A DNA stretch of 57,160 nucleotides, from positions 133,091 to 190,250 of IMG/VR virus record IMGVR_UViG_3300037493_005727; one strand, written 5' to 3'. Each line of letters starts with the position of its first letter. Position 1 is the first letter of the stretch. The notes under the pieces are model-generated. The model had not been told where the DNA came from and searched no databases. It worked only from the letters and a program-made list of their open reading frames with translations. The stretch is from a virus. Positions 25,498 through 49,660 of the stretch are shown one piece after another. The translations under genes were made by a program, and so were the position numbers.

Positions 25498-25519
25498 GGT
25501 TCAAACGGCTTATACCCTA
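25498..25519 (-). promoter_or_regulatory. class-1 promoter-like motif copy
   Basis: Minus strand reads TAGGGTATAAGCCGTTTGAACC, 25 nt before ATG 25472. Confidence 0.45.
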
Positions 25520-25566
25520 CGCGGTAGGAGTTTTCCGAGGCACCCTTCACGTGGTACCTTGAGCGC

Positions 25567-25857
25567 ATGCCCTGGGGAAACGACTTTCCATTCGCAGAAC
25601 TGGCGCAGAAGCTCATCGAGACTCACCTACGCGCTGAACGCGTTCGTCTTGCACAGCGTCTCCAGGCGTTGGAAGCTCGCGCGGCGACCCAGGGGCTCAA
25701 AACAAAAGACCTCCGAGATCTTCGAAAATCGCTACAACAATCTACCCTTCTGGCTCCGGATCGGGTAGACAAAGAACTCGTTTTACCGCGTAAAGCCGCA
25801 GGCGTGTGGCGTCGGCGGTATCTTTCAACGAAATCCCGGCCCGGGAGTGTCTTCTAA
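25567..25857 (+). CDS. hypothetical helical protein
   Basis: 96 aa, TAATG junction with the next gene. Confidence 0.5.
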   Translation: MPWGNDFPFAELAQKLIETHLRAERVRLAQRLQALEARAATQGLKTKDLRDLRKSLQQSTLLAPDRVDKELVLPRKAAGVWRRRYLSTKSRPGSVF

Positions 25858-27614
25858 TGGCGTGGCAAACCTTCGAGCTCCCAAAGATCCCCAGCGGACT
25901 CGGGACGGCCGTTGATGGTCTGAAGACTATCGCGTCTACGTCTTCAGAAGCGTTGAAGCTGGTCAAGAGTCTCGTTGAGGCTCTTGGCGCTACGGCGACT
26001 ACGAGCTTGTCCGCGTCTCAAATAGCGATCAACACGGCGGTGGCGACAATTCAGGCCGCGGTGAAGGCGTTGACCGAAGACACCGGGGTGTACGTGCTGC
26101 TCGTCCCTCCTCGGAGCAAGGTCATCATTCCCGAAGCCGTCAAAGCGGTGCTTGCTCCCTCTCTGTTCATCGCTCCGACTCCTGAGGGGTTGAAGACGCA
26201 AGCTATGTTCGCGGGGCAGCCGACCACTGTACAAGAGAATGCCATCCTCCGAGGCCTGTTCTCCGCCACCGGCGGAAACGCGGGATTCGTAAGGCAGGTC
26301 ACCGAATCTTTCGATGATCTTGGTGACGACAATCGGCCGCAGCTCGGGAAGACTGACGCCGTCGCAGGAATCTACATCGTAGCTGGCGCGGAGAACATCG
26401 CTTCCATCATTCCGTTCACCAACGGGATGTCGTCTCTCCTTGCTCCCGGCAAGCCCACGGCGCTCGACGCCCCAGCTCTTCCGACGCCGCAGAATCTCCG
26501 GGCGAAGGCGGTCAACGGACCCGCGGTCAGCTTGAAATGGGACTACCAGCCGCCCACGGTCGAGATTCCGGCCTTGGGGACCTTTGCGTCGGTGACGGAG
26601 GTGGCGATCATCAAGTCCACTTCCGTGAAGACGCTGTCCGCGACTACCAGCCAGGGGTTGTTTGGGACGACCCAGCTCCGCGTCGGAACGAAGACCGGGG
26701 ATGGAAAAACTGAAGTAGTGGCGATCATACCGCATACCGGGGTCGACTTCAAAAGCGTCGCCATCGACTCTACTGAGCACAAACCTGGAGTGGGCTATTA
26801 CTACGCCGCGAGCTACCACGTGAAGCTGGGGACCTCGAAGGAGCTGGCTTCAGGCGGCGGCTCTGATCTTGGGTTCCTCCGCCTCTCGAACGTGGCGAAG
26901 GTGTACTACCCGAACACCAATTACGGTACTCCACGAAGCATCACAGGTGTTCCCCCGGACTGGTACAGAACTCCGAGAACAATCGACCTATTCCCAGCGG
27001 TCGGTGATCTCTTGAGTCAAGTGGTAAGCCTCACCGCGCAGCTTGGAAACACGACCAAAGGGTACAGTGACCTCCTTAAGGCGAACGTCAAAGTCGTCGA
27101 GCAGCAGATTCTGGGGTACACGGATCTCGCAGCTCGGCTGTCCGCCGCGGCAGCGTCTATCGCGTCTTTCTCCACTATCGATCTCGGTACCGTCAGCTCC
27201 AGAGCGTTCGCAGGCACTGGAGGGGTGGACTTCGTCAAGAAGGACCTCGTAAAGGCGTTCGGTGACACGTCGGACCCCAATCGCCCTCCGTTTGACAACA
27301 ACGAATTCGTTACCGGCGTCGTCATCCTGGCAACCACGCCAAACGCGGTGGCCTTGCTGGAGCAGCTCTTGGGAAGCATCAGTTCGGGCGCCAGCGCCGT
27401 AGCGCTTGCGCTAGAAAAGATCGATGTTGTTCTCACAAACATCGAAGCCGCGGTGTTCAACGACGACATGTCCCCGCACGCGGCGGTCCCAGTTCCAAGC
27501 ACGAGCGCCACCTCTTCGGCAGCGCTGACGTCGTTGGTTGGCGAACAAGCGGGCTACTGCTATCACTCGTACGAACCCAATGTGGAGTTCGACGACAACC
27601 TGAATCCGATCTAA
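25857..27614 (+). CDS. virion structural protein with internal FN3-like domain
   Basis: ATG 25857 (TAATG) inside track ORF 25806-27614. 'PQNLRAKAVNGPAVSLKWDYQPP' is FN3-like and the N-terminus is helical. Confidence 0.6.
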   Translation: MAWQTFELPKIPSGLGTAVDGLKTIASTSSEALKLVKSLVEALGATATTSLSASQIAINTAVATIQAAVKALTEDTGVYVLLVPPRSKVIIPEAVKAVLAPSLFIAPTPEGLKTQAMFAGQPTTVQENAILRGLFSATGGNAGFVRQVTESFDDLGDDNRPQLGKTDAVAGIYIVAGAENIASIIPFTNGMSSLLAPGKPTALDAPALPTPQNLRAKAVNGPAVSLKWDYQPPTVEIPALGTFASVTEVAIIKSTSVKTLSATTSQGLFGTTQLRVGTKTGDGKTEVVAIIPHTGVDFKSVAIDSTEHKPGVGYYYAASYHVKLGTSKELASGGGSDLGFLRLSNVAKVYYPNTNYGTPRSITGVPPDWYRTPRTIDLFPAVGDLLSQVVSLTAQLGNTTKGYSDLLKANVKVVEQQILGYTDLAARLSAAAASIASFSTIDLGTVSSRAFAGTGGVDFVKKDLVKAFGDTSDPNRPPFDNNEFVTGVVILATTPNAVALLEQLLGSISSGASAVALALEKIDVVLTNIEAAVFNDDMSPHAAVPVPSTSATSSAALTSLVGEQAGYCYHSYEPNVEFDDNLNPI

Positions 27615-27623
27615 GGAGGCACA

Positions 27624-27884
27624 ATGCGAAAAATGTTCGACTACAGCTGTGAGGCTTGCGGGCACCAGTTCGAGGCCTTGGTGGAAGGGGAGAACGAAGT
27701 CGAGTGCCCAGAGTGTGAAGAGAGTCCTGCGACGAGGCGGCTCTCTGGGGGGCACCAGTTCGTGGTCATCAAGGCAACCACGCTGACCTCGAAGAAGTAC
27801 AAGGCGGGCTACCAGCACAGCCACACGAACCGGCCTAAGGAGAAAATCTCCGTACAGGTTCCAGCTGCCCCGAAGACCCCGTAG
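27624..27884 (+). CDS. FmdB-type zinc-ribbon protein
   Basis: Strong AAGGAGG RBS. 'YSCEACGHQFEALVEGENEVECPECEE' is the CxxC-x15-CPxC pattern of FmdB-family zinc ribbons. Confidence 0.65.
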   Translation: MRKMFDYSCEACGHQFEALVEGENEVECPECEESPATRRLSGGHQFVVIKATTLTSKKYKAGYQHSHTNRPKEKISVQVPAAPKTP

Positions 27885-27900
27885 AGCCTATACTCCCCCC

Positions 27901-48620: not shown

Positions 48621-48633
48621 TTTATGACCCCCA

Positions 48634-48654
48634 GGGACCCCCTTTCGGGGGCCC
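48634..48654 (-). other. GC hairpin of the repeated intergenic module
   Basis: GGGACCCCC TTTC GGGGGCCC, a near copy of 47811-47834. Confidence 0.6.
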
Positions 48655-48666
48655 CCGGAACCGCCT

Positions 48667-49449
48667 TTACTTGGTAAAGTGGCGAACGGTGCCTTTGAGG
48701 CGAATGGGAGCGACCACCCCCCAGCCCTTCTTGAGCAGTTCATTGGAGTAGACGGGGCTGCTCACGCACGAAATGGTGACGTGGTGCAGCTGCCCCAGAC
48801 TCGGGGCGTTGTAGGGCTCAGGCAGCGTGACCTTTACCGCCTGCCCCTTGTCGTCGGAGGCCTCCCCGACGACCTCGAACTCCACGACCTTCTCGAGGAG
48901 TGGCTCAAAAGCCTTGATCAGTTCAGGCCCAGGCTTGAACGCCAAGGTCACGTGATGCCCAAAGACCTTCGGGTGGATGGGCGGGAAGGCCTTGAGCAGG
49001 GCGTCCTTGGAAGGCTCGTCCAAGAAGATCGCCGTGTAGACGGGCTTCGGCTGAACTGGGATTCTGAGCAGGGCCAGCGCCTTCTCTGGCACCCCGTCGC
49101 AGCTGGGGTGGCAGTCGTGCTTCTCCAGGGCGGCAATGGCCGCCATGATTCGTTCGTCCGAAGCTCTCCAGCCAGCTCGGGAGATCCGGTCATTCTCCTC
49201 GGCCTTGGTCACCTGCTCCGCGAAATACTTCACCTTCTCATCGGCCAACTGCTGGCCCAGTTGCTCGTCTTCGAGCTCCTTGATGCGCTTGTGCAAGCGC
49301 GCCTTGGTCTCCATGAAGATCGTTTCATGGTCTCGGATGAGCTCCGCCTGGTCGCGGATGGTCTGTTTCATCTCCCGCTCCCGCATCTTCAGCACGATGA
49401 CGTCACCCATCGCTTGTCCAAGCCCGATAGCAGGATCTCCTTCACTCAT
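48667..49449 (-). CDS. 2H phosphoesterase (LigT/CPDase-like) with N-terminal coiled coil
   Basis: Two H-x-T/S motifs, 'GHHVTLAF' and 'LHHVTISC', about 70 aa apart in the C-terminal half. The N-terminal ~110 aa are heptad-like. Confidence 0.7.
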   Translation of the reverse strand: MSEGDPAIGLGQAMGDVIVLKMREREMKQTIRDQAELIRDHETIFMETKARLHKRIKELEDEQLGQQLADEKVKYFAEQVTKAEENDRISRAGWRASDERIMAAIAALEKHDCHPSCDGVPEKALALLRIPVQPKPVYTAIFLDEPSKDALLKAFPPIHPKVFGHHVTLAFKPGPELIKAFEPLLEKVVEFEVVGEASDDKGQAVKVTLPEPYNAPSLGQLHHVTISCVSSPVYSNELLKKGWGVVAPIRLKGTVRHFTK

Positions 49450-49642
49450 TTTTACGCATCTCCGCGTAGCGGGCGGTCGCCAGCCACTTCATGTAGTGGG
49501 ACTTCTCCAACGTGTCGATGATCTGAAGCAGTTCTTGGGCGAAGGGGTGGCCTACCCGGATAACGCCCACCGTCTTGTTGAGGAGGTTGATGGCCTGAGA
49601 CAGGTACTTCTCCGCGTCTTCGTCTAGGTGGTTTAGGGGCAT
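49442..49642 (-). CDS. small hypothetical protein
   Basis: ATG 49642 'MPLNHLDEDAEKYLSQAINLL...'. The motif GGGTATCAGGAGTA lies immediately 5' of the ATG. Confidence 0.5.
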   Translation of the reverse strand: MPLNHLDEDAEKYLSQAINLLNKTVGVIRVGHPFAQELLQIIDTLEKSHYMKWLATARYAEMRKNE

Positions 49643-49644
49643 TA

Positions 49645-49660
49645 CTCCTGATACCCTAAT
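49645..49660 (-). promoter_or_regulatory. class-1 box-1 copy abutting a start codon
   Basis: Minus strand reads ATTAGGGTATCAGGAGTA-ATG. Confidence 0.4.

Follow-up and report, generated by a model that had tools for sequence, protein, structure and literature searches.

The window analysed here, a 57,160-nt stretch of a ~190 kb uncultivated phage, carries plus-strand structural genes and leftward, non-structural units. Bacterial-type RNA polymerase genes lie just upstream of the window and encode a beta-beta' fusion and a beta' C-terminal subunit; L009 encodes a 1604-aa protein with Rpb2_3, Rpb2_6, Rpb1_1 and Rpb1_2 domains and a 599-aa Rpb1_5 protein that matches bacterial (Thermus) beta' with E = 5e-35. 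The portal, polymerase, protease and major capsid protein genes are syntenic with those of the cultured Salmonella phage Arash (OQ632216), and the beta' C-terminal subunits of the two phages are 33% identical, virion packaging being known for Arash only.

A short motif, GGTATNAG, has 12 exact matches in the window compared with 1.95 expected from dinucleotide-preserving shuffles (sd 1.3, maximum 6), and none of 100 shuffles reached 12. Eleven of the matches are on the minus strand, of which ten fall in no called gene and sit directly upstream of a minus-strand gene. Although non-coding DNA makes up only ~19% of the window, 10 of the 12 fall between genes and point in the same direction as the gene that follows, and the two matches within open reading frames (1750, plus strand, and 56240, minus strand) equal the chance expectation. 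These ten include all nine copies listed in a first-pass annotation, every one of them an exact minus-strand match, and its 'possible tenth' at 36897-36904, which is also exact and which we accept. The signal is real and enriched, and its position and orientation follow those of the downstream genes.

Our reading of the motif is a promoter of the extended -10-like type, (T/G)G-G-TAT-N-A-G, in which G is invariant at a position where T is needed by sigma-70. In the proposed register the core would run G(-14) G(-13) T A T N A G(-7), and the last core base is G in all 27 copies from the clade; sigma-70 requires T at -7, one of its two most critical -10 bases. This register is uncertain, and a start only 3-5 nt past the core would be a poor fit to sigma-70 geometry. 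Two subclasses are apparent. Subclass Ia combines the core GGTAT(T/G)AG with a TGATCA element in the spacer and with TAAAA at about -33 to -29, whereas subclass Ib lacks the upstream box and has the T-tail of the preceding terminator and the core GGTAT(C/A)AG. The first-pass consensus included an A before GGG and an AGTGATC box, and these are features of a subclass rather than of all copies. Its statement that no -35-like element is present is half right: a scan of 36.5-50 kb for sigma-70-type -35/-10 pairs found one site compared with 2.2 expected and none at the GGTATNAG copies, but TAAAA is positioned 19 nt upstream of the first core G in 14 of the 27 clade copies. Six of the ten intergenic copies come after a strong hairpin rich in G+C (-24 to -35 kcal/mol), and only in some copies does the T-run lie in a canonical terminator tail.

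Downstream of the core, a second box (box 2, YTTGARCC) that had been included in the consensus is present in six of the ten window copies, always 2-3 nt past the core, but is missing at 49648, 43650, 37697 and 36897; the reported 33-35 nt between the end of box 2 and the ATG in four copies agrees exactly with our measurements. In 12 of the 27 clade copies box 2 is predicted to pair with a GCTCAAG-type segment near the ribosome-binding site to form a leader hairpin, with complementarity extending to 3-4 nt past the core. At 37697, where GTGAGC replaces box 2, the T-to-G change is matched by A-to-C in the 3' arm of the putative hairpin, so that the two constitute a compensatory pair. There are also near-leaderless copies, with the ATG 5-8 nt past the core; at 49648 the ATG of the first gene (49642) is 5 nt past the core, such that the mRNA would be near-leaderless, and 'ctattagGGTATCAG' at this copy is kept in the relatives L002 (9290) and L001 (8034). 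Orthologous copies were likewise identified for the 48588-48624 unit in L001 (9781; 84% identity over 83 nt) and for the 38093-38128 unit in L003 (14806), and the 36897 copy is kept together with its leader in L003 (15933).

Table 1. Motif units, predicted leader hairpins and motif-bearing divergent regions (window coordinates unless L009 is given).
Feature	Position	Strand	Components	Context
Core	49648-49655	-	core GGTATCAG	divergent 60-nt region, head of main leftward block
Full subclass Ia unit	48588-48624	-	TAAAA 48620-48624; GATC 48614-48617; T6 48608-48613; core GGTATTAG 48598-48605; box 2 TTTGAACC 48588-48595	upstream of gene starting at 48553
Full subclass Ia unit	47762-47798	-	TAAAG; GATC; T6; core GGTATTAG 47772-47779; box 2 CTTGAGCC 47762-47769	upstream of gene starting at 47727
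Predicted leader hairpin	47740-47769	-	CTTGAGCC x GGCTCAG	minimum-free-energy fold; GGCTCAG arm ends just before Shine-Dalgarno
Full subclass Ia unit	45713-45749	-	TAAAA; GATC; T5; core GGTATTAG 45723-45730; box 2 CTTGAACC 45713-45720	95-nt leader, then kinase-like gene starting at 45627
Subclass Ib unit	45034-45057	-	terminator T6 45052-45057; core GGTATCAG 45044-45051; box 2 CTTGAGCC 45034-45041	core abuts terminator T6 tail; upstream of gene starting at 45000
Predicted leader hairpin	45010-45041	-	CTTGAGCC x GGCTCGAAG	GGCTCGAAG abuts Shine-Dalgarno
Subclass Ib unit	43650-43664	-	T7; core GGTATCAG; no box 2	21 nt past strong hairpin; upstream of ~300-aa gene
Subclass Ia-like unit	38093-38128	-	TAAAA 38124-38128; core GGTATGAG 38103-38110; box 2 CTTGAGCC 38093-38100	after canonical terminator 38136-38167
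Core with terminator T-tail and GATC	37697-37723	-	core GGTATAAG; GTGAGC in place of box 2	
Putative leader hairpin	37675-37694	-	GTGAGC-N8-GCTCAC	-12.6 kcal/mol, z = -2.2; read from sequence
Core	36897-36904	-	core GGTATAAG	3 nt past tRNA-Gln end, 67 nt before 227-aa gene
Core and box 2	25498-25516	-	core GGTATAAG 25509-25516; box 2 TTTGAACC 25498-25505	divergent intergenic region; heads small leftward unit 24334-25472
Divergent region with motif	49643-49702			60 nt, head of main leftward block
Divergent region with motif	25473-25856			window
Divergent region with motif	L009 3605-3712			adjoins polymerase gene

Within the accessible genome, the motif is present in all of the divergent intergenic regions at the head of a leftward unit (Table 1). 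Because no co-directional transcript enters these regions from upstream, transcription must start within them, and no other promoter-like sequence is present. The motif is conserved in relatives, sits where a leftward promoter must exist and lacks a sigma-70-type pair, which together support the earlier suggestion of an extended -10 or phage-specific promoter positioned after terminators, with box 2 at or near the predicted start. We reject a proposed plus-strand variant, TTTTGGTATGGT at 22743-22754, as a copy of the motif: the invariant AG is missing, and the sequence is the T-tail of a terminator that continues into the ATG of the 22750 gene. For the plus-strand structural genes another motif, CCTATACT, is used; it also precedes the polymerase gene, and the two promoter classes are compatible with a temporal programme.

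The motif occupies the same kind of place in related metagenomic phages of 167-197 kb. There are seven copies in 13 kb of L001 (0.49 expected), four in L002 and five in L003, all on the gene strand, and the divergent region beside the polymerase gene also contains it in L018, whose beta' C-terminal subunit is 59% identical. No GGTATNAG match was found in 21.8 kb of L019, a 51% identity relative with 65% GC, in a stretch with one leftward promoter region only. In the leftward block of Arash, no strand-specific 8-mer is more enriched than GGTATAAG, with 11 copies on the gene strand and none on the other, and the 13 GGTATNAG matches in 50 kb (4.5 expected) all share the strand of the genes, most of them ~25-40 nt ahead of a ribosome-binding site and ATG, with the motif also found directly after tRNA-Ser and directly before tRNA-Asn. 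Arash resembles our phage in core, orientation, approximate start-codon distance, tRNA-gene adjacency, genome layout and polymerase genes, but differs in that nearly all of its cores read GGTATAAG, preceded by T at -15, and in that the T-run or TAAAA/TGATCA module is not evident. Vibrio phage D69 has a variant, TGnTATAAGTAATAT, and T(A/G)TAAGTAATAT occurs there five times compared with 0.03 expected. Both cultured phages have TATAAG, with G last, one D69 copy being TGTAAG. The downstream box differs by phage (TGTAAA in Arash, TAATAT in D69, YTTGARCC here) but the core is kept, and it is common to phages of Salmonella, Vibrio and an unknown host with genomes of ~60% GC. The words 'promoter' and 'motif' do not occur in the Arash paper, and the GGTATAAG sites are undescribed there (PMC10585845).

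We favour, with a probability of about 0.65, the explanation that GGTATNAG and its flanks are the promoter of the leftward non-structural units, read by the phage's own polymerase. Promoter function, start sites, the reading polymerase and sigma, and expression timing are all what we infer from these patterns. The presence of a phage-encoded multisubunit RNA polymerase changes the likely reader, which would be this enzyme (the beta-beta' fusion plus the beta' C-terminal subunit) rather than the host sigma-70 holoenzyme; the enzyme is probably partnered by a phage sigma and probably virion-delivered, as in Arash. Transcription is predicted to start 3-8 nt past the core, inside box 2, and in about half of the units pairing of box 2 with the GCTCAAG-type segment would place a hairpin at or near the mRNA 5' end. 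The genes switched on in this way are probably early or middle. Mass spectrometry of Arash particles identified the beta-beta' fusion gp206, the beta' subunit gp216 and the sigma gp10, with gp206 the most abundant virion protein by spectrum count (PMC10585845), and a virion rich in polymerase and sigma suggests that early transcription is driven by the phage. In jumbo phages that encode an RNAP, early operons are preceded by a conserved motif of ~10 nt whose centre lies near -10; it was confirmed as the early promoter in every phage profiled, can be found by bioinformatics alone and varies in its details by phage, as here (PMC7598289).

The early promoters of phiKZ, AR9 and PhiR1-37 are read by a virion-packaged polymerase. 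These phages are similar to ours in encoding beta/beta'-type subunits from genes among the structural genes, and in having a short, highly conserved and relatively A+T-rich motif before small non-structural operons. However, the polymerase described here is much closer to bacterial enzymes, as in the Thermus beta' match, consists of a beta-beta' fusion and one beta' C-terminal piece as opposed to four or five split subunits, and is the single set seen. Furthermore, our motif resembles a sigma-type extended -10 element and Arash has a sigma-70-family protein in its virion, whereas polymerases of the phiKZ type lack a sequence homologue of sigma (PMC7824862, PMC13282480). Compared with the sigma-70 extended -10 element (TGnTATAAT), the core matches in spacing and identity at G(-14), T(-12), A(-11), T(-10) and A(-8), needs no canonical -35 hexamer, and has T at -15 in subclass Ib, Arash and D69; it differs in that -7 is always G, -13 is always G in the clade and -9 is free, that half of the copies have TAAAA rather than TTGACA at -35, and that the region of the expected start is conserved. 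Phage T4 uses middle promoters with a MotA box at -30 plus a -10 element, and late promoters, TATAAATA, read by gp55. The use of phage-specific -35 replacements or a stand-alone 8-bp -10-region motif to mark temporal classes is similar, and the two subclasses together with CCTATACT suggest a T4-like temporal programme, although T4 re-uses the host core polymerase in place of one of its own, and our motif resembles neither the MotA box nor TATAAATA in sequence.

The resemblance to TGnTATAAT, with its invariant G at -14, T at -15 in subclass Ib, Arash and D69 and no strong -35, raises the alternative that these are ordinary host extended -10 promoters read by host sigma-70 immediately after infection, with the phage polymerase serving only CCTATACT or late genes. 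Since the polymerase gene itself bears CCTATACT, the enzyme may be made late, and a sigma was not found in the clade: the Arash gp10 profile matched no ORF in the window or L001-L009 and did not rise above noise for any of the eight L017 genes downstream of the marker gene, and Pfam scans of ~60 proteins gave no sigma domains, the search covering 84 kb, under half of the 190 kb genome. We nonetheless consider a host-read promoter unlikely, as G is last in the 27 clade copies, the Arash GGTATAAG sites and five of five D69 copies where sigma-70 wants T, the same core recurs across phages of Salmonella, Vibrio and an unknown host and tracks the phage polymerase, and polymerase and sigma are abundant in the Arash virion. 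The sequence pattern would be the same if a phage factor redirected the host polymerase.

Strict orientation with transcription and location between genes would also fit an RNA processing site, at which an endonuclease cleaves polycistronic mRNA ahead of a protective hairpin, or an asymmetric operator for a phage regulator. Cluster A mycobacteriophages have oriented 'stoperator' sites of the latter kind. Complementarity of the box 2 hairpin starting 3-4 nt past the core is reminiscent of a processing signal beside a stabiliser, and the TGATCA palindrome in the subclass Ia spacer could bind a dimeric protein. Both versions are quite improbable, however, given that copies follow strong terminators or lie in divergent regions without co-directional upstream transcripts, with no other promoter-like sequence present; the hairpin is missing in about half of the copies, and box 2 is not conserved between phages but the core is. 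Several copies do share a T-run with a terminator, but the probability that they are chance matches or conserved tails of duplicated terminators is negligible, and this origin is refuted as far as sequence statistics can do so, by the excess over shuffled sequence, by copies without a terminator (49648, 25509 and 36897), and by retention of the core in phages with unalignable flanks.

A promoter for the leftward non-structural units read by the phage's own polymerase thus accounts best for these patterns, and because the motif is also present in the cultured phage Arash, it could be put to a bench test.

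The 57,160-base window contains the eight-nucleotide core GGTATNAG 12 times, compared with 1.95 occurrences expected from dinucleotide-preserving shuffles (maximum 6; 0 of 100 reached 12), and 11 of the 12 matches are on the minus strand. The nine copies listed in the first-pass annotation, together with its 'possible tenth' at 36897-36904, are all present as exact minus-strand matches. Using a rough gene call from codon usage, ten of the exact matches are non-coding and each lies immediately 5' of a minus-strand gene, non-coding DNA being 19% of the window; the remaining two (1750, plus strand, and 56240, minus strand) are within long ORFs, about the number expected by chance. 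Six copies in the window are followed 2-3 nt past the core by a second element, YTTGARCC (box 2), and in four of these copies the end of box 2 is 33-35 nt upstream of the ATG, the distance proposed previously.

Strong G+C-rich hairpins (-24 to -35 kcal/mol) are located upstream of six of the ten copies. Three of the six (at copies 45044, 38103, and 37697) are canonical intrinsic terminators in which a G+C-rich hairpin is followed by a U-tract, with the T-tail running into the motif; for copies 48598 and 47772 the T-run is 20-25 nt away from the hairpin. The core is not part of the terminators but a separate feature downstream of the U-tract. The plus-strand 'variant' suggested at 22743 is a terminator tail and start codon, and not a copy of the motif. 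A one-mismatch copy, GGTACAAG, is present in an 800-nt non-coding gap (35346-36145) with ATAAAAA at about the right distance upstream, and may be a degenerate member of the motif ahead of an 80-aa gene (35103-35345).

The window is 60% G+C and its genes are arranged in blocks of opposite orientation (see table). No nucleotide match to cultured phages was found by megablast of 14 kb, nor by tblastn with a 518-aa structural protein, and about 60 proteins scanned against Pfam and PHROG yielded hardly any functions, most of the proteins being without a family. The only structural assignments obtained are for a 302-aa protein, which is 37% identical to the major capsid protein gp226 of the cultured Salmonella phage Arash, and a 665-aa protein that matches Arash gp222 ('structural protein') and the head-maturation-protease PHROG family. 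An Rfam scan of the window reported tRNAs only.

Coordinates of the motif copies, genes, and other features in the window and in L009, the upstream flank of its own assembly
Feature	Coordinates	Strand	Remark
Structural genes	372 to about 29154	+	
Small leftward unit	24334-25472	-	
Small genes and tRNAs block	29290-49642	-	
Gene block resuming	from 49703	+	
665-aa protein	372-2369	+	
302-aa protein	4468-5376	+	
1973-aa ORF	53605-57159, into L007 to 16513	+	
Divergent regions with motif	49643-49702, 25473-25856, L009 3605-3712		
Exact CCTATACT copies	5841-5848, 27887-27894, 50718-50725	+	before structural-block genes
Exact CCTATACT copy	38959-38966	-	directly before gene
Weaker CCTATACC copies	3242, 9118, 18373	+	
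GCTATACT	L009 3699	+	7 nt upstream of ATG of polymerase beta-beta' fusion gene
beta-beta'(N-terminal) fusion, 1604 aa	L009 3713-8527	structural-gene strand	Rpb2_3, Rpb2_6 (beta); Rpb1_1, Rpb1_2 (beta')
beta' C-terminal subunit, 599 aa	L009 10001-11800	structural-gene strand	Rpb1_5
Spacer GATC sites	48614-48617, 47789-47792, 45739-45742, 37713-37716	-	
One-mismatch copy GGTACAAG	35503-35510	-	
Leader after 36897 copy	36840-36896	-	
RNA-repair-like genes	48667-49449, 46994-47398, 45103-45627, 30036-30776	-	
Two tRNA-like genes	35994-36146	+	
Three-unit array	34382-34770	- (reading)	in 816-nt non-coding gap 34287-35102

Several other features of the window were observed. Genes behind motif copies form an RNA-repair-like set, with tRNA genes close by. 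One product resembles 2H phosphoesterases and has two HxT motifs, another has a cREC_REC domain ('cyclic-phosphate processing receiver'), and the remaining two are a kinase-like AAA_33 protein and a metallophosphatase. Two tRNA-like genes are on the plus strand within the minus-strand block, one called by ARAGORN as tRNA-Ile (AAT) and the other given an irregular two-base call for its anticodon loop ('tt'), and both score as tRNA with Rfam (50-52 bits). A non-coding array contains three units with spacings of 183 and 184 nt, each with a hairpin in which the loop, CGTAGTG, is identical and the stems differ with mutually compensating changes (gtcgc/gcgac, gtctc/gagac, gcctc/gaggc), followed in two of the three by a TGGCC-N-GGCCA palindrome; the array could encode small RNAs, serve as an origin, or bind a protein. 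The 1973-aa ORF has no Pfam or PHROG match, is preceded by genes for an M15 peptidase and a Laminin_G_3 protein, and may encode a giant virion or ejection protein.

Searching viral contigs for the motif together with box 2 identified one 188.6-kb contig about 70% identical to the window, and protein-based searches gave more relatives of 167-197 kb, one with only 51% G+C. GGTATNAG is present in these relatives 7 times in 13 kb (0.49 expected), and in 4 and 5 copies, always on the gene strand and at both orthologous and additional positions. In a relative with a 59% identical beta' C-terminal polymerase subunit, TGGTATCAG is located in the divergent region beside the polymerase gene and faces the leftward gene. 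GGTATNAG is absent from 21.8 kb of a relative at 51% identity and 65% G+C, a stretch with only one leftward promoter region.

The motif extends to cultured phages. When 8-mers in 50 kb of the leftward block of Arash were ranked without prior assumption, GGTATAAG and TGGTATAA ranked within the top four; the gene strand has 11 copies of the former and 10 of the latter, and the opposite strand has neither. All 13 GGTATNAG matches in the same 50 kb are on the gene strand, with 4.5 matches expected. Most of the Arash sites either adjoin tRNA genes directly or are followed, after about 25-40 nt, by a ribosome-binding site and an initiation codon, and their consensus is (T)GGTATAAG-N5-TGTAAA. In Vibrio phage D69 (44.5% G+C) the corresponding sequence is TGnTATAAGTAATAT(A/G), a 12-mer found five times (0.03 expected), always on the gene strand. 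The core common to the clade, Arash, and D69 is (T/G)G-n-TAT-n-AG, with one D69 copy having TGTAAG, and the sequence past the core varies by phage: YTTGARCC here, TGTAAA in Arash, and TAATAT in D69.

Alignment of 27 copies, drawn from three relatives as well as from the window and its flank, gives the consensus cgTAAa..g....tTtTT.gGGTAT.AG...TTGAgcC. TAAAA (or TAAAG) starts about 19 nt upstream of the first G in 14 of the 27 copies, corresponding to the -35 position if the T of TAT is taken as -12, and in most of the TAAAA-bearing copies the spacer contains TGATCA. The base that is free within the core is T or G only in the presence of TAAAA (10/10), and C or A mostly in its absence (13/17; Fisher p = 1.5e-4). 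In view of this correlation we distinguish two subclasses, Ia (TAAAA-N-TGATCA-T5-AG-GGTAT(T/G)AG) and Ib, which is either a terminator hairpin followed by T6-GGTAT(C/A)AG or, in divergent regions, the plain 'attagGGTATCAG'. In subclass Ia copies of both the window and the relatives, the GATC, usually inside the TGATCA palindrome, occupies a constant position within the spacer, and could be a methylation-sensitive or a regulator-binding site.

Box 2 forms the 5' arm of a predicted leader hairpin in 12 of the 27 copies, and the 3' arm, which reads GCTCAAG or GGCTCAG, runs up to the ribosome-binding site. Pairing is kept in variants (TTGAGTC/GACTCA, TTGAGCG/CGCTCAA, GTGAGC/GCTCAC). Single hairpins are not significant individually against shuffles (z from -3 to +2); the evidence for them is their constant position and not the single folds. 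Copies with TTTGAACC have short leaders and no hairpin. Conservation of box 2 therefore has some cause besides pairing, the simplest being that it is the sequence around the transcription start site. The clues to the start disagree: in near-leaderless copies the core is 5 nt (window), 8 nt (in the relative L002), or 5 nt (Arash gp9) from the ATG, and hairpin complementarity starts 3-4 nt past the core, whereas in the usual -10 geometry, with transcripts starting 6-8 nt after the hexamer, the start would lie about 7 nt past the core. Two alternative parsings were dropped, TAGGGT as a TANNNT-type -10 element, which is in only some copies, and the TTGAGC of box 2 as the -35 of a downstream promoter, after which there is no -10. 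The leader that follows the 36897 copy is near-identical to positions 15941-15990 of L003, the 51% G+C relative; the shared sequence (gagaagagcaayggcragtaygcccagctcatttttagcc) folds into a hairpin followed by a T-run, and may be an attenuator or small RNA ahead of a 227-aa P-loop gene.

Several lines of evidence argue that the motif functions as a promoter. It is present in all three divergent intergenic regions that head leftward units in the accessible 84 kb, where no upstream co-directional transcript is possible, it is positioned after terminators, and it lies upstream of operons of small non-structural genes. A scan of 13.5 kb for sigma-70-type -35/-10 pairs gave one site (2.2 expected) and none at the motif. 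On these grounds we consider promoter function very likely, with a probability of about 0.9.

The window's own assembly was extended on both sides, giving an accessible genome of 84 kb of about 190 kb, in which a single polymerase set is seen, with a beta-beta' fusion. Both genes neighbor the portal gene and lie about 6-16 kb upstream from where the window begins. The 599-aa beta' C-terminal protein matches bacterial beta' chains in the PDB with E = 5e-35. Metagenomes contain more than 640 homologues of it, which suggests that the group of phages with this subunit is widespread; many of the homologues are on contigs of 180-197 kb, and a contig of 190,250 bp encodes the identical protein. Among cultured phages, the closest by this protein are three Vibrio phages, D69, D181, and D148, at about 35% identity, and Arash at 33%, and only the search with the beta' protein brought these relatives to light. 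Arash shares the gene order of portal, beta-beta' fusion, beta' C-terminal subunit, structural genes, protease, and major capsid protein. Mass spectrometry of Arash virions gave more spectra for the beta-beta' fusion gp206 than for any other protein, and the particles also contain the beta' subunit gp216 and a sigma factor, gp10. The authors propose a role in early transcription; their paper describes no promoters (PMC10585845).

A second motif, CCTATACT, is associated with the structural genes. CCTATACY has seven matches (0.53 expected), with more CCTATACT copies upstream of structural genes in the flanks, and the window copies at 50718 and 38966 are kept at orthologous places in relatives (L001, L002, L003); in Arash, CCTATACT is not enriched. 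Several copies are 6-8 nt from an ATG, the geometry of a leaderless mRNA, with TATACT at -12 to -7. We propose that CCTATACT probably serves as the promoter for the second, late class of genes, and it supports a two-class transcription program. The polymerase genes sit in the structural block and carry this motif, and since it is shared with the virion genes, the polymerase is probably made late and packaged in the virion.

Which polymerase reads GGTATNAG can be considered in light of its resemblance to a sigma-70 extended -10 promoter. An extended -10 has TG at -15/-14, one base upstream of the -10 hexamer. Here G at -14 is present in 27 of 27 copies, T occupies -15 in subclass Ib, and most subclass Ia copies have G there; the corresponding bases are TGG in Arash and TGn in D69. 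A is present at -11. Sigma-70 holoenzymes depend on T at -7, yet this position is G in all clade copies, in the Arash GGTATAAG sites, and in five of five D69 copies. T7-like single-subunit polymerases recognize a block of about 23 bp conserved from -17 to +6, whereas a conserved block of about 30 nt is seen here in subclass Ia only, and none of the approximately 60 proteins scanned has a T7-type RNA_pol Pfam match. The core is kept across phages that have the phage polymerase in common and differ in host and base composition. Jumbo phages that encode an RNAP have a conserved motif of about 10 nt, centered near -10, ahead of their early operons; in all of those profiled it has been confirmed as the early promoter, and it is ascribed to the virion polymerase (PMC7598289). 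Together with the G at -7 and the virion polymerase and sigma of Arash, the conserved core and this precedent lead us to favor the phage polymerase as the likely reader, probably with a phage sigma and with early or middle timing.

The phage sigma itself was sought in several ways. Arash gp10 and its homologues have a Sigma70_r3 domain, but tblastn with gp10 found no sigma in this clade, and when a profile was built from 24 gp10 homologues, none of the ORFs of the window or of L001-L009 matched it. The search covered 84 kb of this phage's approximately 190 kb genome and the loci of the relatives. On the relative L017 the profile gave nothing above noise over eight genes downstream of the marker gene, and no sigma was seen in the 10 kb corresponding to the region past the window end; the approximately 60 proteins scanned have no sigma-domain Pfam match. 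Distant gp10 homologues (L014, L015) are on unrelated contigs of 47% GC.

The early promoters of phiKZ- and AR9-like phages, in which multisubunit phage polymerases have been studied so far and early-promoter recognition is not understood, offer the closest comparison. Genes for a multisubunit beta/beta'-like polymerase are found here too, although within the present group a virion-packaged enzyme is known from Arash only (PMC10585845). The phiKZ/AR9 phages have two split-subunit sets (virion and non-virion) and no sequence homologue of sigma (PMC7598289, PMC7824862, PMC13282480), whereas one set was seen in the accessible 84 kb here, with a beta-beta' fusion, near to bacterial enzymes, and Arash has this same architecture with a sigma-70-family protein. 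The system appears to work like phiKZ-/AR9-type early promoters but, given these differences, is not a member of that family. Jumbo-phage reviews of 2020, 2021, and 2026 have no account of this polymerase type with a sigma (PMC7598289, PMC7824862, PMC13282480), literature searches with the motif strings returned unrelated papers only, and we found no paper on this motif or on promoters of Arash-like phages.

A tentative model, which we regard as somewhat less probable than not, is that GGTATNAG/TGnTATAAG is a clade-wide promoter code. In a kind of phage transcription apparatus that has received little study, a bacterial-type beta-beta' fusion polymerase would be delivered in the virion together with a phage sigma whose specificity at -7 has switched from T to G; reading of G(-7) would allow the phage early genes to be transcribed and host promoters to be ignored, and transcription of the polymerase and virion genes would depend on CCTATACT, an often leaderless element that has the canonical T at -7.

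A promoter motif is in itself an expected type of feature, and this one accounts for the punctuation of the window's leftward gene block and provides an annotation rule for transcription units in a large family of uncultivated 170-200 kb phages. The clade appears to pair a bacterial-like core enzyme with a simple promoter and, in Arash, with a sigma carried in the virion; the promoter departs from the sigma-70 consensus at the base on which sigma-70 depends most. The motif also links a widespread uncultivated clade to the cultured Salmonella phage Arash, in which polymerase action at GGTATAAG and the reading of G(-7) are testable.
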